Positions 5,861 through 34,387 of a stretch of 47,605 nt of DNA are shown here, in pieces. The stretch covers positions 1-47,605 of the forward strand of contig JAFGGO010000045.1 of assembly GCA_016930515.1 (NCBI GenBank), in the 5' to 3' direction. The stretch is from Promethearchaeota archaeon. GTDB lineage: Archaea > Asgardarchaeota > Lokiarchaeia > Sigyniarchaeales > SOKP01. The translations under genes were made by a program, and so were the position numbers. Positions within the stretch are counted from its first letter, which is position 1. Each line of letters starts with the position of its first letter. The notes under the pieces are model-generated. The model was not told the DNA's origin, did no database searches, and was given only the letters and a program-made list of their open reading frames with translations.

Positions 5861-7240
5861 CTAAGATTTTTTTAAGATTAACTCATATAATTCCAAAATA
5901 CTTTTTCTAAAATTATCATAATCAAATTTAATACCTAATCTCGATCTTAATAAGGGAGGAATGTGGTCTACATTCGTGAATATAGGTATGATTGGTTTTC
6001 CTATCGCATCAGCAGCAGTCCATTCCTTTTCAACTGGAATTGAATCTAAGGAGTTAGGAGAGCAGAACAAAAGCATTAAATTGCTTTTGTCAAGATTGTC
6101 GTTCATATACTTGATAATGTTATCATGCATATCCTCTTGCCAATATAGGACATCATCAATTTCTTCAAAAGCAGTCAATTCTTCTGCAATTCTTGAGATC
6201 TGGTATGATTTTGCGTCTATTGTAGCATAGCTTATGAATATTAATAGGTTTTCTCTTTGATATTTTTCTTTTCTTTCAAAAAGTTTTCTTTCTCTTTCAA
6301 TTCTCTCATCTTCTTTTTTCTGAGCTTTGATTAAATTTGACTGATTTTTAAATTCCTTGAAATCCCATAATTTTATGGTTTTATCACTAGAACAACTTAG
6401 AAGAAAATTACCATCACTAGAGAATATGACTTTCCATACATCACCTTGATGATTATTGATGTTTCCAACTATTTCTCCAGTAGAAAAATCCCATATTTTT
6501 ATTGTTTTATCTGCTGAACCGCTAGCAATGTATTTACCATCAGGAGATATTGCTACTGACCAGACTTCACTATTATGACCCTCAAAAGACTTAATCAGTT
6601 TTCCTGTAGGTAGATCCCAAATTTTTATCGTTTTATCAATAGAACCACTTATTATATTTTTTCCATCTGGAGTGATTATTATTGACCACACAGGATTTTT
6701 ATGTCCTTCAAGAGTTCTAATCAAATTTCCTGAGGTCAAATCCCATATTTTTATTGTTCTGTCGCTAGAACCGCTGATAATATATTTATTATCCGGAGAA
6801 AATGATACAGATTGAATTCTAAGGTCATGACCCTCAAACGAACGGATTGGTTTTTTAGCATTAATATCCCATAAAGTTATTTTTTTGTTAAATGAACCAC
6901 TTATAATAGAGTCCCCGATATGAGAAACATCAATAGAATAAACAGGACCAGTCTTACCTTTAAAATTATTAGATGTTCCTGTAGAAGCGTCCCAAATTTT
7001 TATCGTTTTATCAATGGATCCGCTTATAATATTTTTCCTGTCGGGTGTAAATTTAACAGAATGAATTTCATCTTTATGTCCTGTAAATGTTTGAATTAGG
7101 TTTCCAGTGAATAGATTCCATAATTTTATCGTAGAATCTTTTGAACCGCTAACTAGTAAACTATTATCATCAGAAATATCTAATGTTAATATTTCATCTT
7201 CATGACCCATAAAGGTCCGAATTAATAAATTATCTTGCAT
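5861..7240 (-). CDS. WD40 beta-propeller / coiled-coil / TIR-domain protein
   Basis: Seven GH...WD-type repeats; charged linker KKEDERIERERK; TIR motifs IFISYA and VEKEW. Confidence 0.9.
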   Translation of the reverse strand: MQDNLLIRTFMGHEDEILTLDISDDNSLLVSGSKDSTIKLWNLFTGNLIQTFTGHKDEIHSVKFTPDRKNIISGSIDKTIKIWDASTGTSNNFKGKTGPVYSIDVSHIGDSIISGSFNKKITLWDINAKKPIRSFEGHDLRIQSVSFSPDNKYIISGSSDRTIKIWDLTSGNLIRTLEGHKNPVWSIIITPDGKNIISGSIDKTIKIWDLPTGKLIKSFEGHNSEVWSVAISPDGKYIASGSADKTIKIWDFSTGEIVGNINNHQGDVWKVIFSSDGNFLLSCSSDKTIKLWDFKEFKNQSNLIKAQKKEDERIERERKLFERKEKYQRENLLIFISYATIDAKSYQISRIAEELTAFEEIDDVLYWQEDMHDNIIKYMNDNLDKSNLMLLFCSPNSLDSIPVEKEWTAADAIGKPIIPIFTNVDHIPPLLRSRLGIKFDYDNFRKSILELYELILKKS

Positions 7241-18867: not shown

Positions 18868-19112
18868 CTAAATTTTTTTATCATTTTTTAATTAAATAAC
18901 GAGGAAATTTACTGCATCAGTTATTTGATCAAGGTTTATCTTATGTATTTTATTTTTGCTGGCTTTTTAATAATATCGTAATTTTTAAAAACCTTCATTT
19001 TATCTTCAACCTAATATAAATTTTTATAAGTCTTAGGATCTAAAATAAAAAAGAAGGACTATTATGCATTATTTGAATTATAAATAATTATTCAAAAAAA
19101 GTGAAGATAAAA

Positions 19113-20141
19113 ATGTTTGATAAATCGTTTTGTGCGTCTTGTGAAGGGATTGACTGCTTGATGAATTGTCAATGGATAGATTTTAACGGCATTGACGATG
19201 CTCGTTTGGAAATGCAAAAACTAATCAACGAAGATGCAAATGGAAGAGTTCTACAAGAATGTATCGCTTGCTTTGGTTGCGATGAATATTGTCCTAATAA
19301 TTCCCATCCATTTGATTTGATTAACGAGCTCCAGGAAAAGCACAATCCATGGAATATGAATCCTGCTATGGTAAGTAAAATGATAGACATGTACGAACCT
19401 AAAAGAACTCTTGAAATTCGGGAAATAGATCCGACTAAACCCGTATTAAACAAGTGTGCTTTTCCGAAGGTCAATGGAAAGCAAATGAAAGGAAAAATGT
19501 TCGACAACCTTCAATCAGTTGGTGGATTACATTATTTCTGTAATTTAGTTTATCAACACGTTGCTAAACCGTCAGTTATAAAGGAAAGAGTCCCCATCGT
19601 TCTGGATAATTTTAAAAAAATTGGAGTACAAAAAAATACTGAAGTGATCTGTTGGCACGATGAGTGTTATGGGCTATATACCTCCTACTGCGAAAGAAAT
19701 GACTTGGAGGTCCCTTTTAAACCAGTTCATCTTTACGAGTATGTTTATAATTACTTAAAACAACACGAATCAGAGATTAAAAAGTTAAATCTTAAAATTG
19801 CGTATCAGCGAGGTTGTTCAAATAGATATATTCCTGAAACCGATAAGTGGTTGGATAAAGTATGCGAGCTAATCGGCGTTGAAAGAGTTGCGAGACAGTA
19901 CGATAAAGAACAGGCTTTATGTTGCGGAGGCGCATTTCCGTGGAAGGGTAAAAAAGAACTCTTAATCCCTACCCAAACGAAGAATATCGAAGACATGATT
20001 CAATATAGTGCAGAAGCGTGCGTGTTTAACTGTCCAGCGTGCAAGGAAACTCTCGAAAAACAGTTAACAGAAAAAGGAATAAAATCATACTTTATAAGCG
20101 ATTTAGCAAGGCTTGCCTTGGGAGAAAGTTTAGATTATTAA
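19113..20141 (+). CDS. Fe-S protein with CCG domain (HdrD/GlcF-related)
   Basis: CASC...CLMNC, CIACFGCDEYCP, LCCGG, NCPAC; ATG 19113 is 8 nt after GTGA. Confidence 0.8.
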   Translation: MFDKSFCASCEGIDCLMNCQWIDFNGIDDARLEMQKLINEDANGRVLQECIACFGCDEYCPNNSHPFDLINELQEKHNPWNMNPAMVSKMIDMYEPKRTLEIREIDPTKPVLNKCAFPKVNGKQMKGKMFDNLQSVGGLHYFCNLVYQHVAKPSVIKERVPIVLDNFKKIGVQKNTEVICWHDECYGLYTSYCERNDLEVPFKPVHLYEYVYNYLKQHESEIKKLNLKIAYQRGCSNRYIPETDKWLDKVCELIGVERVARQYDKEQALCCGGAFPWKGKKELLIPTQTKNIEDMIQYSAEACVFNCPACKETLEKQLTEKGIKSYFISDLARLALGESLDY

Positions 20142-20168
20142 TAATTAAATTCTTAAATTAGAAACACC

Positions 20169-21548
20169 ATGACAGATAAGATACTTGAAGAATTGGAAAA
20201 CATCGTAGGAAAAGAGTTTGTCTCGAATAATAAGGAAGAATTATATATATACTCCCAGGACCCAGGGGCCTCTATACCTCGTCCTGTTGATTATGTTGTA
20301 ATGCCTAAAACCACTAAAGAAGTTCAAGACATCGTAAAACTTGCAAATAAAGATAGATTTCCGATAATTCCCATGGGTGGAGGTCTCACATTAAGTGGTT
20401 TGACGATTCCGGTTAATGGAGGGATAGTTTTAGACATGAAAAGGATGGACGAAATAATCGAAATAAGCGAGTCAAGTAGATACGCTCTTATCGAACCGGG
20501 AGTTACTTCTGGACGGCTTTCATCCTATCTCAAGAACCATCATCCAACTCTGCAACCACCACTTCCAGACGCCCCTCCTTCTGTAACTATAGCAGGCAAC
20601 GCCTTAATTAACGGTTCTGGATATATTTCTCAAAGACACGGAGACCACGGTTCTTTAATTAACGGTTTAGAAGTCGTATTACCAACGGGAGAAATCGCGA
20701 AATTTGGATCAGCAGCCGTTTCGGATTATTGGTTTGCACGAGGACCAATACCCGATTTAGTTGGTTTATTTCTCAGTTCTTTTGGATCCTTGGGGGTTGT
20801 GACAAAACTCGCAATTCAATTGTTTCCTACACCGAAATTTAGGGATTTTGCTTTCGGATTGACGAAAGATCCGAAAAATCTATTAACATTGCTCCCTAAA
20901 ATCACCGAAACTGGTCTTCCTGAGGACGTCCTTTTAGGAACTCAAGATAAACCCGATTGGATGAAAGGTTATTTTTTCATTAACACCTACATTACCGCAG
21001 ATTCTGAAAAGGATATAGAAGAACAAAAAAGAAAGCTTAACAAAATATACGAAGAAAACGGCGCCCGAATGATGGAGGTTCCAGAAAATCTTCGCCAGTA
21101 TTATCTCATCAAGCCATTATTTGCGTCGAGTGCTGCGGATTTTAGAAAAGGCGGAGGATTTGAGTATGTTGGAGCAATGATGCCCCTCGAAAATGTTCCA
21201 GAAGCTTATTTAAAGGGGATTGAAGTATCAAGAAAGCACGGCATATTCACCACGATAGGCTCAAGGTTAATCAGTCAGACACATAACATTCTCGTGTTTT
21301 TTACATATCCTTTCAATAGGGCGGATCCTAAAGACATCGAGAACGCTCGCAATGCACTTCACGATACCAATAAGTTCGTTTTGGAAATGGGGGGAATCCC
21401 TTGGAAAGCAGAATTAGGAGCTCAAAAAATGATTCTCGAGAAAATGAATCCCGGGTTTAAAAAAGTATTGAAATCAATTAAAAATTTATTAGATCCTAAT
21501 AACATCATGAATCCTGGAAACTGGGAGGTCAAAAAAAATGACGCTTGA
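20169..21548 (+). CDS. FAD-binding oxidoreductase, GlcD/D-lactate dehydrogenase family
   Basis: PMGGGLTLSG, GGIVLDMKRM, GLEVVLPTGE, GSLGVVTK, DPNNIMNPG. Confidence 0.88.
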   Translation: MTDKILEELENIVGKEFVSNNKEELYIYSQDPGASIPRPVDYVVMPKTTKEVQDIVKLANKDRFPIIPMGGGLTLSGLTIPVNGGIVLDMKRMDEIIEISESSRYALIEPGVTSGRLSSYLKNHHPTLQPPLPDAPPSVTIAGNALINGSGYISQRHGDHGSLINGLEVVLPTGEIAKFGSAAVSDYWFARGPIPDLVGLFLSSFGSLGVVTKLAIQLFPTPKFRDFAFGLTKDPKNLLTLLPKITETGLPEDVLLGTQDKPDWMKGYFFINTYITADSEKDIEEQKRKLNKIYEENGARMMEVPENLRQYYLIKPLFASSAADFRKGGGFEYVGAMMPLENVPEAYLKGIEVSRKHGIFTTIGSRLISQTHNILVFFTYPFNRADPKDIENARNALHDTNKFVLEMGGIPWKAELGAQKMILEKMNPGFKKVLKSIKNLLDPNNIMNPGNWEVKKNDA

Positions 21549-22698
21549 AGAATATAAAGATATAATCCACAGGTGTTTCAGGTGCGGTTATTGTAAATTT
21601 AGCTACGACTTTTCGGATTTTAATTGTCCCGCTTATAAAAAATATCGCTTTGAATCGTACAGTTCAGGTGGAAAGATGTGGCTTATTCACGGGATTCTCA
21701 ACAACGAGCTCCAGTGGAGCGAGAACATAGCGAAGATCTTATTTTCTTGCTCAACGTGTGGAAATTGCGTTGAAAATTGTCGATTCGATAAGTTTAACGA
21801 GCATTGGGTTGATATCATTGAAGCGGCTCGCTCTGAAGCGGTTAAAAACGGTTTCTGTCTTGAAGCTCAAAAAAAACTGTCAGAAAGAACAAGCAATGAG
21901 GATTATTATAATCCATATGGTGAAAAACATTCAAACAATGAAAACCTGAAAAAACAATATAATTTACCAGATAAAGCAGAATGGGTTTATTTCATTGGGT
22001 GTACTTCAAATTATCGACAACAAACGCTTAGAGACGCAACAATTCGATTCTTGAAAAAAGCGAAAATTGATTTTACGATCATTAATGAGCGTTGCTGCAC
22101 GAGCCCGTTAATCAGGACCGGACAAATTGACGAAGTTAGGGATTTTATGAATTATAACATCGAAGCAATTAAGAAAGCGGGAGCTTCGAAGGTCATTACT
22201 TCTTGCGCGGGATGCTATAAGACAATTAAAAACGACTTTAGAAAACAAGGAGTAGAGCACAATCTTGAGATATATCACACTTCAGAATTAATTAAAAAAT
22301 TACTAGACGACGGGAAGATAGAAATTCAATCGGGTTTCGATAAGACCATCACATACCACGACCCTTGTCACGTCGGCAGGCACTCTGGGTTATACGATAC
22401 ACCAAGAGCCGTCTATCAATCAATACCAGGTGTTAAAATGGTCGAGATGAGAAGAAATAGGGAAAATTCTTGGTGTTGTGGTGCCGGAGGAGGAGTAAAA
22501 ATAGGATTCCCCGATTGGGCCTTGGAAGTTTCAAAAGAGCGCGTGCTCGAGGCAAAAGATACGGGAGCAACTATATTAACATCAATATGTCCTTTCTGCA
22601 AAACGAATTTAAGCGACGCTAATAGGGAATATAACCTTGGTCTGGAAATATTAGATTTAGTGGAAATATTAGATCAATTGGAAATAAAAACCAAATGA
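21538..22698 (+). CDS. Fe-S oxidoreductase with two CCG domains (GlcF/HdrD-like)
   Basis: CFRCGYC, CSTCGNCVENC, ERCC, TSCAGC, YHDPCH, CCGAGGG, CPFC. Confidence 0.9.
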   Translation: MTLEEYKDIIHRCFRCGYCKFSYDFSDFNCPAYKKYRFESYSSGGKMWLIHGILNNELQWSENIAKILFSCSTCGNCVENCRFDKFNEHWVDIIEAARSEAVKNGFCLEAQKKLSERTSNEDYYNPYGEKHSNNENLKKQYNLPDKAEWVYFIGCTSNYRQQTLRDATIRFLKKAKIDFTIINERCCTSPLIRTGQIDEVRDFMNYNIEAIKKAGASKVITSCAGCYKTIKNDFRKQGVEHNLEIYHTSELIKKLLDDGKIEIQSGFDKTITYHDPCHVGRHSGLYDTPRAVYQSIPGVKMVEMRRNRENSWCCGAGGGVKIGFPDWALEVSKERVLEAKDTGATILTSICPFCKTNLSDANREYNLGLEILDLVEILDQLEIKTK

Positions 22699-22772: not shown

Positions 22773-23806
22773 TCAATCCAAGTTGTCGTATCTATAGGTA
22801 TCTGGAAAGGATAGCACAAAGTCTTCTCCAAATGCCATTGAAGGAGTTAAACTGCCTACTGGTTTGGATTTAAGGATTCTCTCCACGCACATAACTCCAC
22901 TTATAAAAGTAAAACGATAGGGTTCTATGGTTTCTAACCAAGCTTCTGCTTTATCACCTTCCTTGTTCATTGCACACACCCAGATGTGTGATCTCCCTTC
23001 GTTCCTAACTTTTTCTCCTGGACCATATACATTTTTATCAATCCACTCAAAAATTTGATCTTTTGGAGATTTGCTCGTGTTTGTTACTGATGATTGACTG
23101 GTTTTTAAAACGGAGGAAAGATGTTTTGAAAAAGGCATATATGTCGTGATGTTGGGGATACCTGTGGTTTTATAAGCAGTAGATAAATCCCCCCATGATA
23201 CTGGAAATACCACTCGTAGAAACGAATTTTTTTCAAGGGATCGTAATCTGATTTTTTGACAAGTAACCCATTTCTTCTGAAAAAAGTTCCGTTTGAAAGT
23301 GTCTCCACGGTAGTTTTAAGCGTACCCCTGCTAATTTCGTTCATGCCAGAAATTGCAATGTCCAAACGATCTGAATCCTGCACTTTTTTGCTAATATAAC
23401 TTGCCATACAGTCGGTTGGCAGTACATCAAAACCAACCCCTGAAATGATCGCAATTGAAGCGTCCTTTGCATCTTGATGATATTGAAAATTTTGCTCAAA
23501 AACGGATATTTCTCCAGTTATATCTATATAATTCGTACCGACTTTGAGGTAAGCTTCAACTAAAGCATTGCTCGTCTGCTTAAATGGACCCGCAGCGTTT
23601 AAAACTATCTCAAATTCTTTTAATAAATCTTTTAGCTTTTGCTGGTCGTTTAGATCAAATACCAGATATTCTAATCCTAATGATTTTGATATTTCTGTAA
23701 CCTTATCTTGAGATCGTCCAGCCAAGACAGGTTCATAACCCCTTTTATGAGCCTCTTGTGCTATTAACGAACCCGAATAACCATAAGCACCATAATTCAT
23801 CCACAT
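22773..23806 (-). pseudogene. Frameshifted saccharopine-dehydrogenase-like (trans-acting enoyl reductase family) oxidoreductase
   Basis: The N-half (YGAYGYSG, NAAGPF, YIDITGE, GFDVLPTD, SRGT) and the C-half (SWGDLSTAY, GSLTPSMAFG) lie in different frames; switch near 23215. Confidence 0.8.
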
Positions 23807-23870: not shown

Positions 23871-24107
23871 TTATTTTACAGCTTCAAAATAAATATACCA
23901 TTGTTCGTCGTCCTCGAGATACTCCGTTCCCAAGTGCTTGTGTTTTGTTTTAGCCAAGTCTCTCGGGACAGAATCACTTGCAGGCTTGTAATCCGTTATT
24001 ACCTTTAACACTTGTCCTGGCCTCATGGTTCTTAATTGCTTTTTAGTTTTCAAAGCAGGAACCGGACAAACCAAACCACATACATTTAATTCTTGGTCAT
24101 ATTTCAT
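23871..24107 (-). CDS. tusA: TusA/SirA-family sulfur carrier
   Basis: LNVCGLVCPVP (CPxP), GQVLKVITD. Confidence 0.9.
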   Translation of the reverse strand: MKYDQELNVCGLVCPVPALKTKKQLRTMRPGQVLKVITDYKPASDSVPRDLAKTKHKHLGTEYLEDDEQWYIYFEAVK

Positions 24108-24132
24108 TTATTATATCATTCCTCCTTATTTT

Positions 24133-26604
24133 TTAATCGCATATAGCGCTAAAGACTGGTTCTTCCAAAGCTGGCGCGATTTTCATATTTAGCTTTTGTT
24201 GTTGTACTAGTCTTAGAGCCTCATATCTAACTTTTTTAGGTTCCATTGCAAGATTTTCCGATATTTTCGTTATTGTTAATGGTCCTTCAAGATTCACATA
24301 ATCAAGTATCTTCTGTCGGGGTGTTGTTTCAAATCTTAATAATTCACGCTTTGATTTGATATTTATTGCACTTTGGATCTTTTCCTCGTTGATGCTTCCA
24401 ATCTCAAATAAACCTTTCTTGATAGCTGTTTCAACAATTTCTTTCCCCTTTTCCGTCCAAGCTATAACCGTCGTATATCCTTTTTTAGAACCAATATCTC
24501 CTGCTGCAAGATCGGCATGAGAGGCAGGAAAATCCTGGCAATGAGAGCAGTAATTATTGCAATTTAAACATCGTTGTGCCTCCGAAATCGCTCTTTCTTC
24601 GTTGAACATTCCTTCTATTTGCTTAAAATTGTTAAGAAAATCCTCTGAGACGGGTTCTTGGTGTTCTGGTTTAGGTGCCCTAAATTTCGGGATCCTTTTA
24701 GGACCATACGAAAATAGTTTTGATTGCTTCACGCGCCCTTTCTCGAGATCTTTCCCTTTTAAATATCGATCAATAGAGAGAGCAGCTTCTTTTGCTTGAG
24801 CAACTGCCGAAATGACAACGCCTTTTGAATTCTGGATCATGTCTCCAGCAGCAAAAATTCCGGGCACATTCGATTCAAAGGTAATTTCGTTCACAACTAA
24901 TCGCCCCCTGTCTTTTTGGAGCTTATTATCTGTTGCTGCATCCAATTCCGAGAAATCCACTGTTTGACCTATCGCTTGAATTAAAACATCAATGTTTAGC
25001 TTGAACTCTGAGTTTTCAATTACGATTGGTTGGGGTCTCCCAGACGAGTCCGGCTTCCCAAGGTCCATTTCTACACATTCTAACTCGCTGCAACACCCAT
25101 TTTCATCCCCGATAATACAAACGGGGTTTGTAAGAAATTTGAATTCAATGTTTTCCCTTTTAACCATTTCTATCTCTTCGTCTGATGCGGGCATTTGATC
25201 CTCAGATCGGCGATATAAGATAATGACTTTTTTAGCTCCAAGCCTTACCGCCGTTCTTGCCGAATCCATCGCCACATCTCCTCCACCAACGACTCCAACG
25301 ATTTTATCTTTGACTAGGTTGCTCATAATTTTCTTGCTTTCTTCTGATTTTTTTACCATTTTTAAGAAATCAACGCCCTCAAAGACGTTTTTCAGGTCAT
25401 TTCCCTCAATGCTCATGCTAAAACCGTTTTGTAAACCAATTCCAACAAAAAAGGCTTTATAACCTTCCTTTTTCAGATCCGAAATGGTCAATTTAGAACC
25501 TATGGTTGTATTAGTGAGAATTTCCACACCTGCATTCTTTATAACCTGAATGTCATGCTCTAAAAATTCCTGCGTTAGTCGAAACTCAGGTACTCCATAT
25601 CTCAACATTCCACCTATTCGTGATGACTTCTCAAATATTGTTGGTGAATATCCCATTTTAGCAAGAAAGTATGCTGCTGTTAATCCTGAAGCACCTGATC
25701 CAATGATCGCTATTTTCTCTCCTTTATTTTTTGAGGATTTATCATATTTGGTAGTATTATTAATTTCCCAGTTGGCAGCGTTTTTTTTTAATTCTCGAAT
25801 AGCAATAGGGCTCTCAACACCCATGAGCGTGCAATTATGTTCGCATTCGTTAGTACATATTTGACCACAAACGGAAGGTAAGGGATTATTTTTACGGATT
25901 AGATCCATTGCATCTTTAAATTTTGATTGACGGATCAGGTCAATATAACCTCTTGCGTCAACATCAGCAGGACATCCACTACAACAAGGTGAACACATTA
26001 TACCTTGATCTGTCTTAAAAGATCGCATTCCAGCGTTACAAAATAAGCCAATTTTGAGAATATCTTTATTCAATAGATTTTGAATATTAGAAACACCTCT
26101 CATTTCGCACGGCACTCCAACGATCCCGATTTTTTCAAGAGGATTTTCAAGAGTTTGAATCAATTTTGATAAGACATTCGGACGACCATAAATTGAACCT
26201 GCGGATTGAATTACATCTTCGACTTTAGAAGTAGAAATCGCTCTTGGGATTTCATTATCGTTTTGAACCAAGACCACATTGGTCAATTCATTTTTTTCTA
26301 ATAATTTTTTAACTATTGTCGTCACGAAACCTCCGCTTGAGGCATTTTTTTGAATTTCAGGATCCTTCGTTCTTAAGGAGTATATTCCCTTTGGGATCCT
26401 TGGTTCAAATTTTTTTTGTATTACTTGTGGACAACTATTATAGCATTTTCCGCACTCCACCCCTTCTCTGTCTAAAACGCAGTAATCCTTCAACTCTGGC
26501 TTGAAACCCTCAAATTTGATGTGCTTGCACAAGCCTTCACATAAACCACACCCTTGACAGAGCCCTACATCAATGATCTTGCTTTTTAACATTTGAAAAC
26601 TCAT
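24133..26604 (-). CDS. Fusion protein: ferredoxin + FrhB/FdhB-like flavoprotein with inserted GltD/NfnB(SudA)-like domain + C-terminal wHTH
   Basis: CQGCGLC/CGKCYNSCP; FrhB motifs GGFVT, VGVPC, IGLFC and later CSHCQDF..ADLAAG..GYTTVIAWTEKG; GltD motifs PCCSGCP, CGQIC..CEHNC, GSGASG, GGMLRYGVP, GGGDVAMD, YRR, FAAGD, RCLNC. Confidence 0.88.
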   Translation of the reverse strand: MSFQMLKSKIIDVGLCQGCGLCEGLCKHIKFEGFKPELKDYCVLDREGVECGKCYNSCPQVIQKKFEPRIPKGIYSLRTKDPEIQKNASSGGFVTTIVKKLLEKNELTNVVLVQNDNEIPRAISTSKVEDVIQSAGSIYGRPNVLSKLIQTLENPLEKIGIVGVPCEMRGVSNIQNLLNKDILKIGLFCNAGMRSFKTDQGIMCSPCCSGCPADVDARGYIDLIRQSKFKDAMDLIRKNNPLPSVCGQICTNECEHNCTLMGVESPIAIRELKKNAANWEINNTTKYDKSSKNKGEKIAIIGSGASGLTAAYFLAKMGYSPTIFEKSSRIGGMLRYGVPEFRLTQEFLEHDIQVIKNAGVEILTNTTIGSKLTISDLKKEGYKAFFVGIGLQNGFSMSIEGNDLKNVFEGVDFLKMVKKSEESKKIMSNLVKDKIVGVVGGGDVAMDSARTAVRLGAKKVIILYRRSEDQMPASDEEIEMVKRENIEFKFLTNPVCIIGDENGCCSELECVEMDLGKPDSSGRPQPIVIENSEFKLNIDVLIQAIGQTVDFSELDAATDNKLQKDRGRLVVNEITFESNVPGIFAAGDMIQNSKGVVISAVAQAKEAALSIDRYLKGKDLEKGRVKQSKLFSYGPKRIPKFRAPKPEHQEPVSEDFLNNFKQIEGMFNEERAISEAQRCLNCNNYCSHCQDFPASHADLAAGDIGSKKGYTTVIAWTEKGKEIVETAIKKGLFEIGSINEEKIQSAINIKSKRELLRFETTPRQKILDYVNLEGPLTITKISENLAMEPKKVRYEALRLVQQQKLNMKIAPALEEPVFSAICD

Positions 26605-26608
26605 AAAA

Positions 26609-27847
26609 TTATTCCTCCTTAATTTTTATTTTTGTGATTACGCCTTTTGAATCGATTCCAAATTCTATTCTTCCATTTTTATAATTTCCTTCGAAAATCT
26701 CAAATGATTGAGATTTATACTCTTCAAAATCATTCAATTCTCCAACAGGCGTTTTAAAACCACCAAAAAATACATTAGACAAGTTCATATTACCCGCAAT
26801 CCTCCTTATTTCGCTTGTTATATTTTCGTATTTATTAGCGTCCTGATCTTTCATTGCGGTTTTAAGTTGATTTTCTAAGTTCTTAAGGTCTTTTCTATAT
26901 TGAACAGTTTTTTCACTCACATCAATTCCAGTTCCTTTTTCATAAGCTTCAATTAAACTCAATGTCAGGGATATGGCGTTTTCTCCACCTAAAAGACCAG
27001 TTATTAATGGAGCTTCTTCGATTAACCTGTCAACGAAAATATCTTCTAAGACACTCCCCTTTGAAGGAATTTTTCCTTTTGGTAGTCCAGATGTTGGGAG
27101 CGTGAATCGGAAGAAATTTCCGACCACATCTGGGAGACTTTCAGTTACATCGTCATCTTCGTCGGATAATTTATCTGTTGCCCCGTATTTTGAAGCTTCG
27201 GTTGCAACTTCTACATTCCCCATAAGCGTTCCAAACATCCCAAGCATTCTAATGCCCGAGCGCGGAACCATCGGCTTGCACCCTCGACATTGTGTTCCAT
27301 AATCTATACATCTTTCCTTGCATTCAGTCGAAACATATCCATTGCAGAGAAAACCTTGATCGTTAAAGCACATTTCTTCGTCTTCAAATGGATCGATTTG
27401 TCTCTTGACTTCGTCCAGAAATTCACAAGTGGATTTTCGCTTGCAAGATTGACACAATGCTTTCAATTTAGGCTTCTCTTCTCCCTTAATTTCTGATTTT
27501 AATTCCTCGACTTCGGCAAGACATCCATTTATCTTTGTAGTACCTTCAAAATATTTATCTATTGGTGTTATGCTCCATCCTTTTTGATTTGCAAGTCCAA
27601 AAACGCCTCCTGTTGTGGTACAATCTCCATATGCAATAATTTGCTTAGCGCTCGAACCAATCTTCGATATTTTTTCTTTATCTTCTGGCAGCAAATATCC
27701 ACACACGATGGCCACATCAATTTTTTCTTCTTTCCAATTTCTCGGATTTTGAACGAGTTCTAATTGTATCGACGAATCTTTTTTCAATAAGAGAGTTTCA
27801 TTGAAACATTTCTTGCAACCGTTAAATTGAAACGCTTTAACTTTCAT
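26609..27847 (-). CDS. MvhG/VhuG-like Fe-S subunit fused to a vestigial NiFe large-subunit (MvhA-like) segment
   Basis: GCKKC, YGDCTTTGG, NGC, LCQSC, CFNDQGFLCNG..C...C......CRGC; C-terminal region IEEAPLITG...GGFKTP; ATG 27847 overlaps the mvhD stop. Confidence 0.8.
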   Translation of the reverse strand: MKVKAFQFNGCKKCFNETLLLKKDSSIQLELVQNPRNWKEEKIDVAIVCGYLLPEDKEKISKIGSSAKQIIAYGDCTTTGGVFGLANQKGWSITPIDKYFEGTTKINGCLAEVEELKSEIKGEEKPKLKALCQSCKRKSTCEFLDEVKRQIDPFEDEEMCFNDQGFLCNGYVSTECKERCIDYGTQCRGCKPMVPRSGIRMLGMFGTLMGNVEVATEASKYGATDKLSDEDDDVTESLPDVVGNFFRFTLPTSGLPKGKIPSKGSVLEDIFVDRLIEEAPLITGLLGGENAISLTLSLIEAYEKGTGIDVSEKTVQYRKDLKNLENQLKTAMKDQDANKYENITSEIRRIAGNMNLSNVFFGGFKTPVGELNDFEEYKSQSFEIFEGNYKNGRIEFGIDSKGVITKIKIKEE

Positions 27848-28280
27848 TTTCAAACTTTCCTCCGTCATTAATTGCTGCACACAATCGTTCCACGATATCA
27901 TCAAAATCTCCAACCGCCGTTTCACCTTCTGCGGCTCTTGAAGTATATTGATTCACGAATTGATCGCTATACCCTAATTCCTTAAAAAGTTTTTTCATTA
28001 TTTTTATCCTGCGCATTGCTATGAAATTCCCATTAAAAAAATGACAGGCGCCTAAGCAACACCCCACGCAAGCAACGGAATCTGCACCATTATTTAGCGC
28101 ATCCATTATCTGTATTGGACCAACTTGACCCGTACATTGAACTCTTACGATTCTGATCGCAGGATCGTATTCCATCCTTCCAACCCCTGCAGTATTTGCA
28201 GAGCCTTGACCACATTCATTGCACATAAATACGACAATATTTTCATATCCTTCACATTTGGCAGCTTCACATTCATTCAT
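27837..28280 (-). CDS. mvhD: MvhD/FlpD [2Fe-2S] subunit
   Basis: FMCNEC, IRIVRVQCTG, GADSV..VGCCLGACHF.NGN; SD GGAGGTG upstream of ATG 28280. Confidence 0.92.
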   Translation of the reverse strand: MNECEAAKCEGYENIVVFMCNECGQGSANTAGVGRMEYDPAIRIVRVQCTGQVGPIQIMDALNNGADSVACVGCCLGACHFFNGNFIAMRRIKIMKKLFKELGYSDQFVNQYTSRAAEGETAVGDFDDIVERLCAAINDGGKFENES

Positions 28281-30294
28281 TACAAACAACACCTCCACCA
28301 GATATTGGAATGATCTCGTAAAGCAGTTGGTCGTCGCTAAAATTAAGCAATTGTATGGCACCAACAGGACACGCAGGCATACACATCCCACATGATTTAC
28401 AAGCAACTTCGTTAATCACGGGTCTTCCATTATCGTTCCATTTAATTGCAGACGGATTACATGCTGTAATACACATTCCACAATCTACGCATAATTCATA
28501 ATCGATTGAAGGAATTAGCATTTCCTTTTCGATGTATCCTTTTACTAAATGCTGAGAGGCAAGAGCAGCAGCATTGCCAGCATGTGCCACGGATTCGGAT
28601 ATATCCTTGGGACCTTGAATGGCACCTGCCAAGTAAATCCCGCCTTTGCTACTTGCCGTTGGATTCATCTTGATGTGAAATTCTTTAAAGAATCCTTCTT
28701 TTGAGCGTAGAATTTGAAGTTTTGATCCAAGCGGCCCTATTCCTTGAGGAGGAACCATGGCTGCCGACAAAACAACTAAATCAGCTTTAAGTCTTAATGG
28801 GATTTGGCTTAAAGTATCCTCTACGATGACATGTAAGTCACCAGATATAGGATCCTTTAATATCTCAGATGGTCGACCTCTTATAAATCGCACTCCTTTT
28901 TCTTGGGCACTCATGTAATATTCTTCAAAGTTTAATCCTGGTGTCCGCATATCAATATAACAAATTGTTACATCAGCATCGGGATACATGTCTTTTACGA
29001 TTCCGGCGTTTTTAGTAGCGAATTTACAACAAACTCCAGTGCAATATTTATTTCCAACCTGTTCGTTTCGACTTCCAACACATTGAATCATTACAATCTT
29101 TTTCGGAATTTTTCCGTCCGATGGTCTCATTACCTCGCTTCCCGTCATAGTAGTGGGTCCAAGCATTCTTTCCAATTGTAACTGAGTAATGACATCATCG
29201 TATCCTACTTTTCCATAATGATAAGCTTCGATCTCGCTCGGATCGTACTCTTCGTATCCAACGGCTACGACTATTGATCCAACCTTGAAACTTTTTATTT
29301 CTGGTTTCTCGGAGAAATCAATAGCTTGAACCGGACAAATATTAATGCAAGTATTGCATTCAATGCAATCCTTTTTGGAACGAACAAAAGTTGAAGGAAT
29401 GGCCTGGGGATAAGCCTTATATATCGCAGTGCGCGTTGACATTCCCTTGTCCCATTCTGATAGTACTTCCACAGGACAATTAGCAGCACATTCTCCACAT
29501 GAAGTACAGTTATCCTTCACATATCGTGGTTTAATTTCGATTTCAACTTCAAAATTGCCCATCGAACCTTCAACACTCTTGATTTGAGAATTTGTAAAAA
29601 GCTGTATTAGAGGATGATTAGCAACGCCGTTTGTTAACGGGGAGATGCTACATTGTGGACATTCGTTCGTTGGAAATGTTTTGTTCAACCTCGTCATATG
29701 GCCCCCTATTGTCGACTCCCTCTCGACTAAATAGACGGGAATTCCTAATTCGGCCATATCGTAAGCAGCTCGTAGACCAGCAATTCCAGCACCTACGACC
29801 AAAGCCGCTTTTGTTGTTGGAATTTTTTTCGTCTCTACTTCTTTTAACTTTCGAGCTCGATTTATTCCTGCCTCAACCATTTTCATTGCCTTGTTGGTTG
29901 CCTTATCTTTTTCTTTATTATGAACCCAACTGCAAAACTCTCTAATATTTACTTGTTGATGCAAGTGCTTGTTTAAACCCATTTCTTCGATGGCTTTGGC
30001 AAAAGTTCTTCCGTGTTGATTTTTTGAACAGGAAGCAACCACCGATTTATTCACGCCTTTTTCTTTTATGGCTTCTTTTAATAATTCAACTCCAGGTTTG
30101 GAACACATGAACATATAATGCTTTGCTTCCACTACATTAGGTAAAGTTCCTGCATATTCAGCAACCTTCTCAACATCAACAGTTCCTGCAATATTATGAC
30201 CACAATGACATACAAACACACCAATCCTAGGTTCTTCTTCACCTTCTGCTTGTTTTTCGATTTTTGCTTTTATCTCATTTTTTTTAACAACCAT
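28273..30294 (-). CDS. hdrA: Heterodisulfide reductase subunit A
   Basis: RIGVFVCHCG.NIAG, NIREFCSWVH, GAGIAG, KTFPTNEC..C, IQCVGSR...YCTGVCC, GPKDI, C-terminal ferredoxin motifs. Confidence 0.97.
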   Translation of the reverse strand: MVVKKNEIKAKIEKQAEGEEEPRIGVFVCHCGHNIAGTVDVEKVAEYAGTLPNVVEAKHYMFMCSKPGVELLKEAIKEKGVNKSVVASCSKNQHGRTFAKAIEEMGLNKHLHQQVNIREFCSWVHNKEKDKATNKAMKMVEAGINRARKLKEVETKKIPTTKAALVVGAGIAGLRAAYDMAELGIPVYLVERESTIGGHMTRLNKTFPTNECPQCSISPLTNGVANHPLIQLFTNSQIKSVEGSMGNFEVEIEIKPRYVKDNCTSCGECAANCPVEVLSEWDKGMSTRTAIYKAYPQAIPSTFVRSKKDCIECNTCINICPVQAIDFSEKPEIKSFKVGSIVVAVGYEEYDPSEIEAYHYGKVGYDDVITQLQLERMLGPTTMTGSEVMRPSDGKIPKKIVMIQCVGSRNEQVGNKYCTGVCCKFATKNAGIVKDMYPDADVTICYIDMRTPGLNFEEYYMSAQEKGVRFIRGRPSEILKDPISGDLHVIVEDTLSQIPLRLKADLVVLSAAMVPPQGIGPLGSKLQILRSKEGFFKEFHIKMNPTASSKGGIYLAGAIQGPKDISESVAHAGNAAALASQHLVKGYIEKEMLIPSIDYELCVDCGMCITACNPSAIKWNDNGRPVINEVACKSCGMCMPACPVGAIQLLNFSDDQLLYEIIPISGGGVVCNE

Positions 30295-31215
30295 CTAAAT
30301 TGCCTCCTCCTCCTTTTCACGCATGTCTGTAAGTTTGAAATTGTAATTTTTTCCCATCATCTGATATTGGAGTCCAATAAAATCGACATCCATCCCCATA
30401 CAATACGCAAGAAGTTGAGAAAGATGGATTACAGGATAATCGTATGAACACCCTTTATTCTTGTTTAAATAATCTTGTCCAGTCTCGAATTGAAGGTGGC
30501 AGAACGGACATATGTCTAATATGAAATCGGGTTTAACTTCGTCAATATTTTTCATTTTTTCTCCAAAAATTGTCATGCTAGATGTTCCATCAAAAGCCTT
30601 TACTCCGCCACCTGCTCCGCAACACGTGAGCTGTTCTTTAAACCTAACAGATTGAACGCCGAGTGCTTCTATGAAGTCTTCAATTATCGTTGGGCTTTCA
30701 GAGCTTTCGATCTCCCGTATCCTCGTTGGTTTGAGGAAATGACACCCATAATGAACTGCTGCCTTAGCGTTGACTTTTCTTACGATAGCATCTTCAATAC
30801 CCCAAGGTCCTATATCGAAACCCAGAACTTCTGCTATGTGTCTAACTTCAATTGTCCCTTGAAACTCATAATCCCCCAATAAGGTTAACTTTTCATTAAC
30901 TATTTTTTTTGCTGATTCGTCTTGCTTGAGGTGTTTATTAACTTCTTGCAAGGTTCCAAAACATCCATTACACACGGTCAAAATATCGGCATCCATTTTT
31001 TCCGCTATGCATATATTTCTTGCAGCGTGTACCATCCAATCAACCTTATTAAACGATCTAAATACCCCTGGAGCGGGACAACACGCTGCTCTTTCCATAT
31101 CCAACAATTCATAACCAAGTTTTTCCATGACGAATTTGGTTGCTTTTTCTATTTGAGGATATCTATTAGGCATAATACATCCTAAAAAGAACGCAAAAGT
31201 CATTTCTCTTGCCAT
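30295..31215 (-). CDS. hdrB: Heterodisulfide reductase subunit B
   Basis: FLGCIMPNRYP, CCPAPG, CNGC, HYGCH, CCGAGGG, CPFCHLQF. Confidence 0.97.
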   Translation of the reverse strand: MAREMTFAFFLGCIMPNRYPQIEKATKFVMEKLGYELLDMERAACCPAPGVFRSFNKVDWMVHAARNICIAEKMDADILTVCNGCFGTLQEVNKHLKQDESAKKIVNEKLTLLGDYEFQGTIEVRHIAEVLGFDIGPWGIEDAIVRKVNAKAAVHYGCHFLKPTRIREIESSESPTIIEDFIEALGVQSVRFKEQLTCCGAGGGVKAFDGTSSMTIFGEKMKNIDEVKPDFILDICPFCHLQFETGQDYLNKNKGCSYDYPVIHLSQLLAYCMGMDVDFIGLQYQMMGKNYNFKLTDMREKEEEAI

Positions 31216-31782
31216 TTATTTATCTTCCTCCTTAATTTTCTTTTTTTCAGGTACTAAATCAAATAAATTTTTTGCGATGTTTTTTAAATCATCGTCTTTT
31301 TCGTCTTTATACTTATATGCCGTAGGAGGAAGTTCTTCCAAACCTAATTCGACCCTTTGTTTTTTAATTGCATCGTTAATGGGGACTGCGTGTCCAGTAT
31401 TTTTCAAGTAACCTACTACCGCCCTATGATTCGGACTTATATTTCCTAGTTTTGTAGCGTAATTTCTTAGTTCTATTATGACATCGGTGGGGCGTACATC
31501 TCTAGGACATCGCTCGTAGCATTGATAACAGGTGGTACATAACCAAATATCTGGATCTTCTAATACACTGAGATCCCCCAAAACAAGTCTCCTTATTATC
31601 GAACGCGTTTTCAGAGCTGTCCATCTGCCACTTTCACAACTGGCGGTACAAGTTCCACATTGAATGCAAGACCAAATATTCGTCTTTCGCTCTATATCCT
31701 TGAAATATTGAGGGTCGAAATCAGAATCAGTCTTATATTGCCTATTTTTGGATTTATTCTCGGTTTCTGATATTCTTACCAA
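31216..31782 (-). CDS. hdrC: Heterodisulfide reductase subunit C
   Basis: CIQCGTCTASC, WLCTTCYQCYERCPR, TGHAVP; the start may be ATA at 31773. Confidence 0.96.
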   Translation of the reverse strand: MVRISETENKSKNRQYKTDSDFDPQYFKDIERKTNIWSCIQCGTCTASCESGRWTALKTRSIIRRLVLGDLSVLEDPDIWLCTTCYQCYERCPRDVRPTDVIIELRNYATKLGNISPNHRAVVGYLKNTGHAVPINDAIKKQRVELGLEELPPTAYKYKDEKDDDLKNIAKNLFDLVPEKKKIKEEDK

Positions 31783-31822
31783 CTCCTTTATATTATTATC
31801 TTTAAAAATAAAAAAAAATAAT

Positions 31823-32239
31823 TTACAACGATACGATCCTTCCGCCTTCGCTCATTTCGAGAAAGGAGGCGGCACCAACAGGATCTTCTACGAAGTCGAA
31901 TAGTTGCTCTCTTTTAATTCCCATGAGATCCATCGTCATTTGGCAGGGGAATAACCTCATACTTCTATTATCGACAGCCTCCTTGATCATGCCCCAAGGG
32001 TCTTCAATACCAAACTTTTTCAACTTCTTTAAGAACATCTTTGCTGCCATTCCCTTCATTGGAGCGGGCATTCCGGCCACTTTTGGTTTGAATTTCTTTT
32101 TTAACAGAAATAATCCCCAAAACGTAAAAAAGAAATTCATCTTGACATCCATGGCATCGCCTGTGGTTCCCAAGATCATCATCATTGCAAATTTTTCAAA
32201 AGATTTGTCTTTTACAATAAAATTAATTGTTTCAACCAT
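31823..32239 (-). CDS. DsrE2-like sulfurtransferase
   Basis: FFTFWGL, PCQMTMDLMG, VGAASFL; ATG 32239 follows GATGTGA. Confidence 0.88.
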   Translation of the reverse strand: MVETINFIVKDKSFEKFAMMMILGTTGDAMDVKMNFFFTFWGLFLLKKKFKPKVAGMPAPMKGMAAKMFLKKLKKFGIEDPWGMIKEAVDNRSMRLFPCQMTMDLMGIKREQLFDFVEDPVGAASFLEMSEGGRIVSL

Positions 32240-32296
32240 ATTTTTCACATCTTCTTTTTTTCTTTGTCTGTTTTTATATTTTAAAAAATCTTTAAT

Positions 32297-32638
32297 TTAC
32301 ATCCAGGATACTATTTTTTCCGAGTTTTCTAACACATCTACTAGATCTGTGTATTCAATTGGCTCGACTTTATCGAATAAATTATCCGCGCTAATTCCTC
32401 GAGCCTTCAAGTCTGGACTCATTGCGAAAAATTTCACGGGTAAGTCGAATAGGTTTTTGATTATGTCATTGAATTTTCTTTTGGAAAAACTAAGAACGAC
32501 GGAATCGTGAATCAAGACCATCCCGATTTTTGAACCGCTTGCAATTTGCTCATTTATTAAAGGAATTATTGTATTCAGGTGATTTAAAGCGTCAGAACCA
32601 TAACCATACAGATAGGTGATATTTATTTTTTCTACCAT
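32297..32638 (-). CDS. DsrH/TusB-like protein
   Basis: VLIHDSV, DLKARGI, IEYTDLVD...IVSW. Confidence 0.85.
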   Translation of the reverse strand: MVEKINITYLYGYGSDALNHLNTIIPLINEQIASGSKIGMVLIHDSVVLSFSKRKFNDIIKNLFDLPVKFFAMSPDLKARGISADNLFDKVEPIEYTDLVDVLENSEKIVSWM

Positions 32639-32654
32639 TTTTCATATTCACCCC

Positions 32655-33023
32655 TTACATGTAAAAACAGGAACTTGCATCATCGATGAATCCTTTCAAG
32701 TCTCTCATGCTAATCACGCTTAAGTTTTCGTAATCAATTAAATCCACTTTTGACAATCCCACCTCTTCTAAAGCCGTATCCAATACTTTCAGCTCCAAAT
32801 CCGATAAGTCCGCCATCTCTAAGGTTTCTTCATAAGAATCCCCCCCTGTGGCCCTTGGATCTGCTTGTTTGTTCAACATATACACAGAATCTCCTGTAAA
32901 TACAATTTTGCAATCCAGTTCTTCTCCAAGACCCATAAAACCAGAACCCAGTCTGATAACTTCGATAGCTGAATTCTTTCCAATTGGGGATTTATTACAG
33001 ATAATTATTACGGATTCAACCAT
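32655..33023 (-). CDS. DsrF/TusC-like protein
   Basis: KSPIG...EVIRL, VFTGDSVY; position between dsrE and dsrH; ATG 33023 follows GGAGGTTGA. Confidence 0.8.
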   Translation of the reverse strand: MVESVIIICNKSPIGKNSAIEVIRLGSGFMGLGEELDCKIVFTGDSVYMLNKQADPRATGGDSYEETLEMADLSDLELKVLDTALEEVGLSKVDLIDYENLSVISMRDLKGFIDDASSCFYM

Positions 33024-33028
33024 TTTTT

Positions 33029-33397
33029 TCAACCTCCTACCCCAAACACAATCAATTTATCCGATTCGTAAGCCCAGTTGGATAATTCTCCGAGCCCTTC
33101 GTCTCTTCCCGTATAAATGAAGCTATCCTCTTTTATGCCAGTCAATCCCACCCAAGTACTGCATCCTGCGATTGGAATATTGTATTTTTCGCTGAATTCT
33201 TCCAATCTCTGCGGTATGTTTCTCGTGGACGCCCCTACATTAATGTCCTTTTTAATATTATATACGCCGCTTCCAAACGTGAAGATCCCCTTAACCAAGT
33301 GACCTTTTTCTATTAGTGCCTTGCATAGATTTATTATTGTATCAGTCGCTTCAAATTTATAGGGTTCCGTGCAGAGTAAAAATGTGTAAGTCGACAT
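33029..33397 (-). CDS. DsrE/TusD-like sulfurtransferase
   Basis: TEPY, GIFTFGSGVY, active-site-position Cys in AGCST, GLGELS...SDKLIVF. Confidence 0.85.
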   Translation of the reverse strand: MSTYTFLLCTEPYKFEATDTIINLCKALIEKGHLVKGIFTFGSGVYNIKKDINVGASTRNIPQRLEEFSEKYNIPIAGCSTWVGLTGIKEDSFIYTGRDEGLGELSNWAYESDKLIVFGVGG

Positions 33398-33424
33398 TTA
33401 TTGCACCTCTTTTTTTAGGATCCT

Positions 33425-33649
33425 TCAGGCTTTTTTTATTATAAACGTGATAATTTCGCCATCTTGATTCGTTTCAACTATTTCATCGCCTGTTTTTTTG
33501 ATGAGAGCGGGAATGTCTTTTAAAGCTCCTATGTCGTCTGCAATCAATTCAATCGTCTGCCCCGTGGTCATATTTTTTAACTCTTTTTTCGTCAATAATA
33601 CGGGCATTGGACATTTCTTACCTTTCGCATTAATAATTTTTTCAGCCAT
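33425..33649 (-). CDS. tusA: TusA/SirA-family sulfur carrier
   Basis: INAKGKKCPMP (CPxP), ADD.GA..DIP. Confidence 0.92.
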   Translation of the reverse strand: MAEKIINAKGKKCPMPVLLTKKELKNMTTGQTIELIADDIGALKDIPALIKKTGDEIVETNQDGEIITFIIKKA

Positions 33650-33696
33650 ATTATTCAACTTTTACGTTTTTTTGTTTCATTTTTTTAGTTTTTTAT

Positions 33697-33715
33697 ATCA
33701 CGAATGTATCGTGAT
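33697..33715. promoter_or_regulatory. Perfect 7-5-7 inverted repeat, putative operator of the tusA-dsr-hdr operon
   Basis: ATCACGA-ATGTA-TCGTGAT, between the TATA-like TTTATAAA (~33746-33753) and tusA. Confidence 0.55.
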
Positions 33716-33913: not shown

Positions 33914-34387
33914 ATGACTAAACCAATGGATTTTATAGACATTGACGATAAGGACAAAAAAATTTTAGATATCCTGCAACACGATGCTAAAACATCACTA
34001 AGAGACATGGCCAAAGAAACGGGACTTAGCACGACTGCGATAAGAGCCAGATTAAACAAGCTTAAAGAAGAGGAAGTGATAAAAAGTCAAATTACCTTGA
34101 TAGACTGCAGTAAATTAGGCTATCGGGAAATGGTGCTGGCTTCTTTAAGGGTTAATTCTTCTCAACCTTTAGATCAAATCAAAAAAAAAATTGACGAGAT
34201 GGAAAAAATCAAATATGCATACATTATTACAGGAGAATATCCACTTTTTCTCATGTTCAAGTGCCTCGACCACGGTGATTCCATAAAACAGATTGAAGCA
34301 TTGAGAAATCTGCCAGGTGTTGAGGAGGTAAAAACGCAAATCGTCCTCGATCGAATCAAAGAAGATCATTCAATAATAATTCCCTAA
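33914..34387 (+). CDS. Lrp/AsnC-family transcriptional regulator
   Basis: IDDKDKKILDILQHDAK HTH, ITGEYP RAM domain. Confidence 0.95.
   Translation: MTKPMDFIDIDDKDKKILDILQHDAKTSLRDMAKETGLSTTAIRARLNKLKEEEVIKSQITLIDCSKLGYREMVLASLRVNSSQPLDQIKKKIDEMEKIKYAYIITGEYPLFLMFKCLDHGDSIKQIEALRNLPGVEEVKTQIVLDRIKEDHSIIIP

Follow-up and report, generated by a model that had tools for sequence, protein, structure and literature searches.

A candidate NAD(P)H-linked heterodisulfide reductase with sulfur carriers and a nickel-free, hydrogenase-derived arm in Lokiarchaeia

A heterodisulfide reductase operon flanked by sulfur-carrier genes

A run of 12 genes in a 47,605-nucleotide contig of a Promethearchaeota archaeon (JAFGGO010000045.1, assembly GCA_016930515.1; hereafter, the window) joins genes for a heterodisulfide reductase (Hdr) with genes for sulfur carriers of the TusA and DsrE types. 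Our preferred, tentative reading, to which we give slightly less than an even chance, is that the run encodes an NAD(P)H-linked Hdr that reduces sulfur bound to TusA and DsrE. Judged from its sequence, the hydrogenase of this operon is dead yet conserved. A broader proposition, held a shade more cautiously, is that the cluster represents an energy system of the Asgard lineage in which a bifurcating Hdr acts on TusA/DsrE-bound sulfur through a dead-hydrogenase arm whose donor socket was refitted in the course of evolution; the states of this socket would be an intact F420 site, a deleted site, an NADH site and, in the window genome, an NADPH site.

The window is one contig of a 4.0-Mb metagenome-assembled genome (94% complete, 5.3% contamination), the closest relatives of which are Promethearchaeota (Lokiarchaeia). 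Pfam assignments bear out the gene order given in a first-pass annotation of this DNA: 12 open reading frames (ORFs) on the minus strand, tusA-dsrE-dsrF-dsrH-dsrE2-hdrC-hdrB-hdrA-mvhD-mvhG*-[frhB::gltD]-tusA, divergent from a gene of the Lrp/AsnC family, where mvhG* denotes mvhG with a fused tail derived from mvhA. As also stated there, no gene for a NiFe large subunit, Fdh or Flx lies within the 12-gene run. The families in the run are TusA (twice), DsrE (twice), DsrH, DrsE_2, Fer4 (HdrC), CCG (twice, in HdrB), HdrA, FlpD (MvhD), Oxidored_q6 (MvhG) and, in the fusion, FrhB_N/C with Fer4_20 and Pyr_redox_2. After correction of two starts (mvhD to the ATG at 28280 and mvhG* to the ATG at 27847), the intergenic distances range from -11 to 48 nucleotides. 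The arrangement exceeds chance because the order is kept across families of Lokiarchaeia and in Thorarchaeia. The features of the run, all on the minus strand, are as follows.

33425..33658, minus: TusA1; likely start at ATG 33649; cysteine of the CPxP motif present; PF01206, E 5e-22
33029..33397, minus: DsrE/TusD-like protein, with Cys79
32655..33032, minus: DsrF/TusC-like protein, with conserved Cys41
32297..32638, minus: DsrH/TusB-like protein, no cysteine
31823..32248, minus: DsrE2-like carrier, with Cys102; PF13686
31216..31782, minus: HdrC, two 4Fe-4S motifs
30295..31215, minus: HdrB, methanogen-type, all ten cysteines of the non-cubane clusters
28273..30294, minus: HdrA, methanogen-type, equivalents of K409 and E356 and all ferredoxin domains
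27837..28280, minus: MvhD, 147 aa from ATG 28280, 2Fe-2S cysteines kept
26609..27847, minus: MvhG*, 412 aa, MvhG with conserved Fe-S cysteines and the fused MvhA-derived tail
26612..27064, minus: MvhA remnant within MvhG* (approximately residues 262-412), equivalent to the N-terminal helices of NiFe large subunits but devoid of nickel ligands
24133..26604, minus: donor subunit, 823 aa, with two 4Fe-4S ferredoxin clusters, FrhB core, GltD/NfnB insert, FrhB C-terminal part and winged helix
24730..26007, minus: GltD/NfnB-like FAD/NAD(P) domain of the donor subunit, in the place of the FrhB F420-channel subdomain (PMC3930138)
24925..25467, minus: NADP-type nucleotide-binding segment of the donor subunit, YRRS at residues 464-467; groups with HdrD::GltD paralogues, not with orthologues
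24136..24339, minus: C-terminal winged helix of the donor subunit, recognised from a model of the orthologue from Thorarchaeia (Z about 12)
23871..24107, minus: TusA2, with the CPxP Cys14 and an extra Cys10 found in most copies from Lokiarchaeia

The catalytic core is of the methanogen type

Sequence comparisons indicate that the core is a methanogen-type Hdr that is probably competent for bifurcation. The first-pass annotation had made the same assignment, which stands on the two HdrA residues, the full set of Fe-S ligands in HdrA, the ten HdrB cysteines and the two clusters of HdrC; Lys409 and Glu356 have been proposed as marks of bifurcating HdrA (PMC12054007). The comparison with methanogen Hdr and with the sHdr of sulfur oxidisers, also called for in that annotation, places HdrA far from sHdrA (E 2e-191 against 5ODC_A, and 1e-38 against sHdrA 6TJR). 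HdrB is 45-51% identical to methanogen HdrB, with 365 bits for TIGR03288 (cut-off 345) and E 5e-92 for 5ODC. In a midpoint-rooted tree of 46 sequences, the HdrBs of this operon, from Lokiarchaeia, from Thorarchaeia and from a deep-branching metagenomic contig (L069), lie on one side of a branch with support of 98/96, near the methanogen HdrBs but separate from them, and apart from the other HdrBs of the same genome. Relative to 39 methanogen sequences, the operon HdrBs carry consistent, clade-specific changes beside the cluster motifs (G53 to R, R206 to K, and R208 to Y, F or A).

MvhG carries the remnant of a hydrogenase large subunit

The vestigial mvhA recognised in the first-pass annotation is corroborated by a profile of the 150-residue MvhG* tail. 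In the PDB this profile matches FrhA, at its N-terminal helices (E 0.018), and in a library of 1.8 billion proteins it picks out a NiFe large subunit confirmed by Pfam (P0177; E 1e-4). The tail has LLGG where the nickel-binding motif RxCGxC would stand, and MvhG* retains the proximal-cluster cysteines. The tail belongs to a small family, with 23 clusters recovered at E 0.001 from the 1.8 billion representatives, and every named full-length protein that carries the tail is from Asgard archaea. MvhG* as a whole has 365 homologues, the best 120 of which are 61-74% identical to it. The predicted structure is of low confidence (pLDDT, the predicted local distance difference test, 58), and a fold search with it matched small subunits only; the tail probably occupies the docking face, a region in which the model has low confidence. 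The last strands of the tail, compared by eye with a circularly permuted N-terminus of MvhA, are not claimed as such. For the annotation of Asgard genomes, these features imply that MvhG next to HdrABC need not indicate a hydrogenase.

The donor subunit and its electron donor

In Methanothermobacter marburgensis FrhB, residues 128-188 form the subdomain that lines the F420 channel, and the GKGK turn in this subdomain has been proposed to bind the phosphate of F420 (PMC3930138, PMC3591093). The spacing between the flanking cluster cysteine and the CxxC motif is 56-59 aa in intact FrhB, 18 aa in the copies from Thorarchaeia and 471-497 aa in those from Lokiarchaeia (497 in the window); the GltD domain fills the gap in the latter, and the F420-channel subdomain is deleted in the former. 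The QDGG, KY and MENF loops of FrhB are altered in the donor subunit. Since GltD replaces the subdomain that lines the F420 channel, F420H2, one of the two donors named in the first-pass annotation, is an unlikely donor for the window copy. An intact FrhB occupies the donor position only in the deep-branching contig, and the ancestral donor was probably F420H2. Matches to the CofE family (F420 ligase), the sole F420 gene that was checked, are present in the host genome.

In GltD-type domains, an acidic residue at the YRR site goes with NAD(H) and YRR itself with NADP. Such a residue (D or E) is present in all 34 orthologous GltD domains checked, those of congeners and of cultured strains included, and the orthologues are therefore likely to be of the NAD(H) type. 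The window copy alone has YRRS, in the manner of Nfn structures, and in alignments with 9N5U and 4YLF it agrees at each motif (GGGx(V/T)AxD and, after it, YRR), so NADPH, the other donor proposed earlier, fits the window copy and not the family. Residues 380-560 of the window protein group with HdrD::GltD paralogues, and residues 200-360 and 565-625 with the orthologues. The whole donor gene is 51-53% identical to its counterparts in congeners, compared with 80-94% for HdrA, HdrB, HdrC, MvhD and TusA2. These comparisons suggest that the donor gene of the window is a mosaic gene, or else a deep xenologue in which an older NADP site has survived. A recent copy or a misassembly was considered as the source of the NADP segment; the genome has no near-identical second copy, and the protein is recorded in NCBI and in Logan, although a single sample probably underlies both records. 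A 904-aa HdrC-GltD-CCG fusion encoded on another contig (HdrD::GltD; L059, C157:18659-21373) represents an NADP-type family from which the exchanged segment appears to derive.

The winged helix of the donor subunit persists even where the FrhB core has been lost. Two loci (L049:6887-8029 and L075:6440-7582) encode donor subunits of 380 aa from which GltD has been lost again, leaving short GltD scars. Taken together, the forms of the donor subunit make up a natural series of cofactor swaps upon a single bifurcating core.

Sulfur carriers and the genomic background

The cysteines expected to carry sulfur are kept in nearly all homologues compared (TusA1, 16/16; DsrE, 19/19; DsrF, 18/19; DsrE2, 16/16; TusA2, 23/23). 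Cys79 of the window DsrE matches in position the active Cys78 of A. vinosum DsrE (PMC13293266). The DsrE2-like protein is a distant member of its family, because its score with the NCBIfam DsrE2 model is 51, far under the cut-off of 210. A DsrE-family gene lies directly upstream of hdrC in most loci. TusA2 is the best conserved of the carriers, and it is gained and lost along with mvhG*: among 70 genomes of the family, TusA2 and the MvhG* tail were detected together in 25 and neither turned up in 40, with 5 discordant, a comparison that is not a statistical test because the genomes are kin (three genera, with 19 genomes, show neither). A complex prediction for HdrB with TusA2 scored 0.00, a result that, for want of control pairs, counts neither way.

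A search for DsrC/TusE gave no match in the window genome, nor in 14 genomes related to it, of which three consist of a single contig, so that DsrEFH would lack its known sulfur acceptor. The window genome likewise yielded no match to sulfite reductase (DsrAB), and its single GcvH-family gene is on another contig, with no LbpA or sHdrH gene in the cluster. Neither McrA nor ComA has a match in this 94%-complete genome, in agreement with the non-methanogen host assumed in the first-pass annotation; the absence of ComA is weak evidence because M. acetivorans likewise gave no match. Other hdr loci of the genome have no adjacent carriers. On contig C156, a tusA-dsrE-iscS-iscU cluster is followed by a fusion of CoA-disulfide reductase, rhodanese, TusA and rhodanese (L058, C156:12179-18339); this cluster could provide a persulfide reductase and a second sulfur relay that supplies or removes sulfane sulfur.

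Intact NiFe genes occur elsewhere in the genome, namely, one complete gene (on C104) and two pairs of mvhG and mvhA that are interrupted by the ends of their contigs, and each intact large subunit adjoins its own small-subunit gene. At the C104 locus (L054, C104:7265-11865), the gene for an HdrA with an N-terminal winged helix (DUF7347) and a fused MvhD precedes those for a small subunit and for the intact large subunit of the NiFe enzyme; the locus thus provides another redox enzyme with a winged helix. The two cut pairs (C74:1-1580 and C150:1-1652) are similar and end at the same point, by duplication or by contamination during binning.

Conservation and distribution of the cluster

MvhG* was found in 43 of the 301 genomes of the phylum that were searched, mainly in two families of Lokiarchaeia and one family whose copies match Thorarchaeota records. 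The complete gene set is present in 19 loci of Lokiarchaeia, and most of the other loci end at contig breaks; the exceptions are L097, without a downstream tusA2, and L111, without a carrier in the DNA available. In the loci from Thorarchaeia, the carriers are rearranged, but in most of these loci hdrC is still preceded by a DsrE-family gene and the donor gene still followed by TusA2. By comparison, none of 39 methanogen loci has a tusA or dsrE match within up to 8 kb of hdrB. The synteny of the carriers with hdr, on which the first-pass annotation had made its proposal depend, is thus upheld by the complete loci, the variants from Thorarchaeia and the methanogen loci.

The cluster is carried by P. 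syntrophicum MK-D1, L. ossiferum B35, H. repetitus FW102 and Ca. Sigynarchaeum springense. In MK-D1 it corresponds to DSAG12_01139-01151 and has been listed among Hdr complexes without comment (PMC7015854); there it adjoins, in back-to-back orientation, a second hdrCBA-mvhD operon that shares the region upstream of tusA1 (L062, G306:C1:650000-669900). Genes for ThiF, an additional TusA and cysteine desulfurase are inserted in the H. repetitus FW102 cluster (L034), the donor subunit of which is 142 aa long. The deepest branch of the clade, a probably archaeal contig (L069, JGI 3300033148), reads dsrE-dsrE-hdrCBA-mvhD-mvhG*-intact frhB-tusA. In three loci (L044, L050 and L096), a second, convergent dsrEFH set lies downstream of tusA2.

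Proposed reaction and alternative explanations

Under the preferred reading, a soluble (HdrABC)2-MvhD complex would assemble with its hydrogenase arm rebuilt as a nickel-free wire. A pyridine nucleotide would be oxidised at the FAD of the GltD insert, NADPH in the window copy and presumably NADH in the family at large, and electrons would travel along the Fe-S clusters of the FrhB scaffold and of its ferredoxin domain to MvhG*, MvhD and the flavin of HdrA, with the MvhA stump kept as a structural plug. The two non-cubane clusters of HdrB would then reduce an S-S bond borne by a carrier rather than the heterodisulfide of coenzyme M and coenzyme B (CoM-S-S-CoB), sulfur being handed from TusA1 to DsrEFH and on to DsrE2/TusA2, with sulfide and the free carrier thiol as products; the second electron would go to ferredoxin, potentials permitting. 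Such a complex could serve an amino-acid fermenter as a sink for reducing power and for removal of sulfane sulfur derived from cysteine, thiosulfate or polysulfide. Each half of the scheme has a precedent: the DsrC trisulfide, a protein-bound substrate, is reduced by DsrK, which is a CCG protein (PMC10861901), and the Elp-Hdr complex has a nickel-free donor arm made from a truncated enzyme (PMC12350162). In sediment, Lokiarchaeal HdrABC transcripts have been reported without MvhADG transcripts (10.1101/826495). From the first-pass proposal, the preferred reading keeps the methanogen-type Hdr, the nickel-free arm, the carrier linkage and the non-methanogen host, and drops F420H2 and confines NADPH to the window copy.

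Several observations weigh against this reading. With standard potentials from PMC5861303, an assumed -270 mV for the persulfide and -420 to -500 mV for ferredoxin, bifurcation onto a persulfide comes to +10 to +40 kJ with NADH and to -10 to +6 kJ with NADPH; with NADH the reaction is uphill, and a carrier bond of higher potential is therefore needed, one above about -200 mV for the NADH reaction to become feasible. HdrB still clears the CoB-CoM reductase cut-off of TIGR03288, and the donor subunit is unstable, with GltD lost in two loci (L049 and L075) and only the ferredoxin and winged helix left in H. repetitus. The YeeE sulfur transporter was not found in the 94%-complete genome. In MK-D1, the cluster is transcribed at 182-348 reads per kilobase per million (RPKM), the same level as the neighbouring genes (PMC7015854).

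The similarity of HdrB to its methanogen homologues also suits an enzyme that acts on a small-molecule disulfide (a CoM/CoB analogue, CoA or cysteine), the carriers supplying thiol or cluster sulfur. A disulfide near -140 mV would make bifurcation feasible, and ThiF with cysteine desulfurase in the H. repetitus cluster is biosynthetic company. We nevertheless consider this explanation rather unlikely, given that methanogen hdrB loci and the other hdr loci of the genome lack adjacent carriers, that a separate tusA-dsrE-iscS-iscU cluster exists on C156 and that the conservation of TusA2 comes close to that of the catalytic subunits. Marginally less probable is operation in reverse, by confurcation: reduced ferredoxin would drive the conversion of sulfide and carrier thiol to persulfide with NAD(P)+ as acceptor, to provide sulfane sulfur for the biosynthesis of an anaerobe or to oxidise sulfide in the manner of sHdr. 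This direction is downhill for the NAD-type orthologues under the assumed potentials, it accords with the lack of a match to sulfite reductase and with ThiF and IscS inside the H. repetitus cluster, and TusA and DsrE feed sHdr in sulfur oxidisers (PMC11094781). On the other hand, HdrA is distant from sHdrA, the cluster lacks sHdrH/LbpA, and the NADP-type site of the window would favour reduction if the NADPH pool is highly reduced. Moreover, fermenters usually spend NADH rather than make it.

The remaining two explanations appear improbable. A link to H2 could be made in trans because there are intact NiFe genes elsewhere in the genome: an intact MvhA might dock on MvhG*, or an MvhAG pair might replace MvhG* on MvhD. 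The complete C104 gene and the two cut pairs, the MvhA present in each of three complete genomes (MK-D1, B35 and FW102), the proximal-cluster cysteines of MvhG* and the near loss of the donor subunit in H. repetitus are all compatible with it, and a preprint draws H2 as the donor for reduction of TusA/DsrE persulfides (10.1101/2025.07.22.663070). We rate this possibility as quite improbable since every intact large subunit here has its own small-subunit gene next to it, the MvhA-derived tail probably fills the docking face (a region of low model confidence), and nearly every locus has the gene of a flavin donor subunit after mvhG*. Still less probable, and in our estimate the least to be expected of all, is that the carriers serve thiolation of tRNA or cofactors (of the TusA-TusBCD-TusE-MnmA type) with no functional link to hdr. 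The names TusA/B/C/D given by annotators, four genes that separate the donor subunit from tusA2 in one congener and the L097 locus without a downstream tusA2 speak for it, whereas TusE is missing, a true MnmA was not found in the window genome (weak PP-loop matches only, best E 6e-8), the linkage outlasts rearrangement across classes with carriers on both sides, and TusA2 and MvhG* are gained and lost together.

Relation to known systems

Every part of the cluster comes from a known family. The complex shares with MvhAGD-HdrABC of methanogens (PDB 5ODC) the homologues of HdrA, HdrB, HdrC, MvhD and MvhG with their cofactor ligands; it differs in lacking the NiFe site and its CxxC motifs, with MvhA only as a fused tail, in having a flavin donor subunit and flanking carrier genes, and in a host without a McrA match. 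ElpABC-HdrABC of M. marburgensis (PMC12350162, PDB 8RVU) likewise has a nickel-free arm, in which a catalytically dead remnant is joined by a flavoprotein of the FrhB family and a homologue of MvhD; Elp, however, derives from FdhAB and oxidises F420H2, whereas the window cluster has an MvhA remnant, GltD in place of the F420 subdomain and an acceptor that is probably not CoM-S-S-CoB. No FdhA-like gene (ElpA) is present in the 12-gene run, and the remnant matches NiFe large subunits. In sHdr-LbpA systems (PMC11094781), Hdr-type genes also cluster with tusA and dsrE2-type carriers; in contrast, the window cluster has a methanogen-type HdrA, a single HdrB and HdrC, MvhD/MvhG and DsrEFH, has no sHdrH/LbpA gene, and matches neither the shdrC1B1AHC2B2 nor the type II core order as defined in that paper.

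For DsrMKJOP/DsrC of sulfate reducers, the CCG cluster of DsrK reduces protein-bound sulfur (PMC10861901), as is proposed here for HdrB. Type III HdrA/HdrL with a GltD insert (PMC12054007), NfnA and StnC (9N5U, 8OH5) share the GltD-type entry of pyridine nucleotide; in the window, by contrast, GltD is set within an FrhB scaffold, in a separate subunit that would stand upstream of MvhG* and MvhD in the electron path.

FlxABCD-HdrABC with DsrC is an NADH-linked Hdr proposed to act upon a protein-bound sulfur bond. The window cluster differs from it in having no Flx, in carriers of the TusA/DsrE types and in that no DsrC or sulfite reductase was found.

The idea of an Hdr acting on persulfides is already present in a 2025 preprint on Nerearchaeum marumarumayae (10.1101/2025.07.22.663070), where Fig. 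5 has a Lokiarchaeal Hdr reducing TusA/DsrE persulfides; the donor there is assumed to be H2 through a group 3c hydrogenase, and neither a dedicated cluster nor a dead MvhA nor an NAD(P)H arm is described in the main text. A literature search, with most subscription papers out of reach, turned up no account of this cluster, of the fusion between MvhG and the MvhA stump or of the refitted donor subunit. The new results here are that the F420 subdomain has been lost, that the donor subunits divide into NAD and NADP types, that a probably ancestral form has an intact FrhB, and which locus tags the cluster bears in a cultured strain. Asgard genomes hold many Hdr genes, and this cluster offers a candidate substrate and donor that can be tested now because it is present in cultured strains (MK-D1 and L. 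ossiferum B35). On the broader proposition, cultured Lokiarchaea would have a hitherto unrecognised way of reducing or producing sulfane sulfur that needs no Dsr, Psr or sHdr. If the proposed substrate and donor are correct, these syntrophs could pass electrons to sulfur besides H2, which bears on the hydrogen and sulfur models of the origin of eukaryotes.

Regulatory region and flanking genes

Two features lie upstream of the operon.

33914..34387, plus: Lrp/AsnC regulator (Pfam), divergent from the operon
33697..33715: inverted repeat, a candidate operator with 7-bp arms and a 5-nucleotide spacer, about 50-65 nucleotides upstream of tusA1

In MK-D1, L. ossiferum and H. repetitus, the lrp gene lies inside the operon in the same direction. 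The exact palindrome of the window is absent from the orthologous loci, several of which have looser AT-rich palindromes at a similar position (by eye, unquantified). A scan for sigma-70 promoters gave results near chance, with a model that does not apply to archaea.

Downstream of tusA2, a saccharopine-dehydrogenase-like gene (window 22773-23806, minus strand) consists of two overlapping ORFs with an apparent frameshift, corresponding to a single 347-aa ORF in a congener. Convergent with the operon are genes for a CCG protein, an FAD-oxidase (GlcD-like) and another CCG protein (window 19101-22698, plus strand); homologues of the first two also adjoin the operon in another locus (L003). Farther away, the window encodes a WD40-repeat protein (5861-7240, minus strand) of a eukaryote-signature type common in Asgard genomes.

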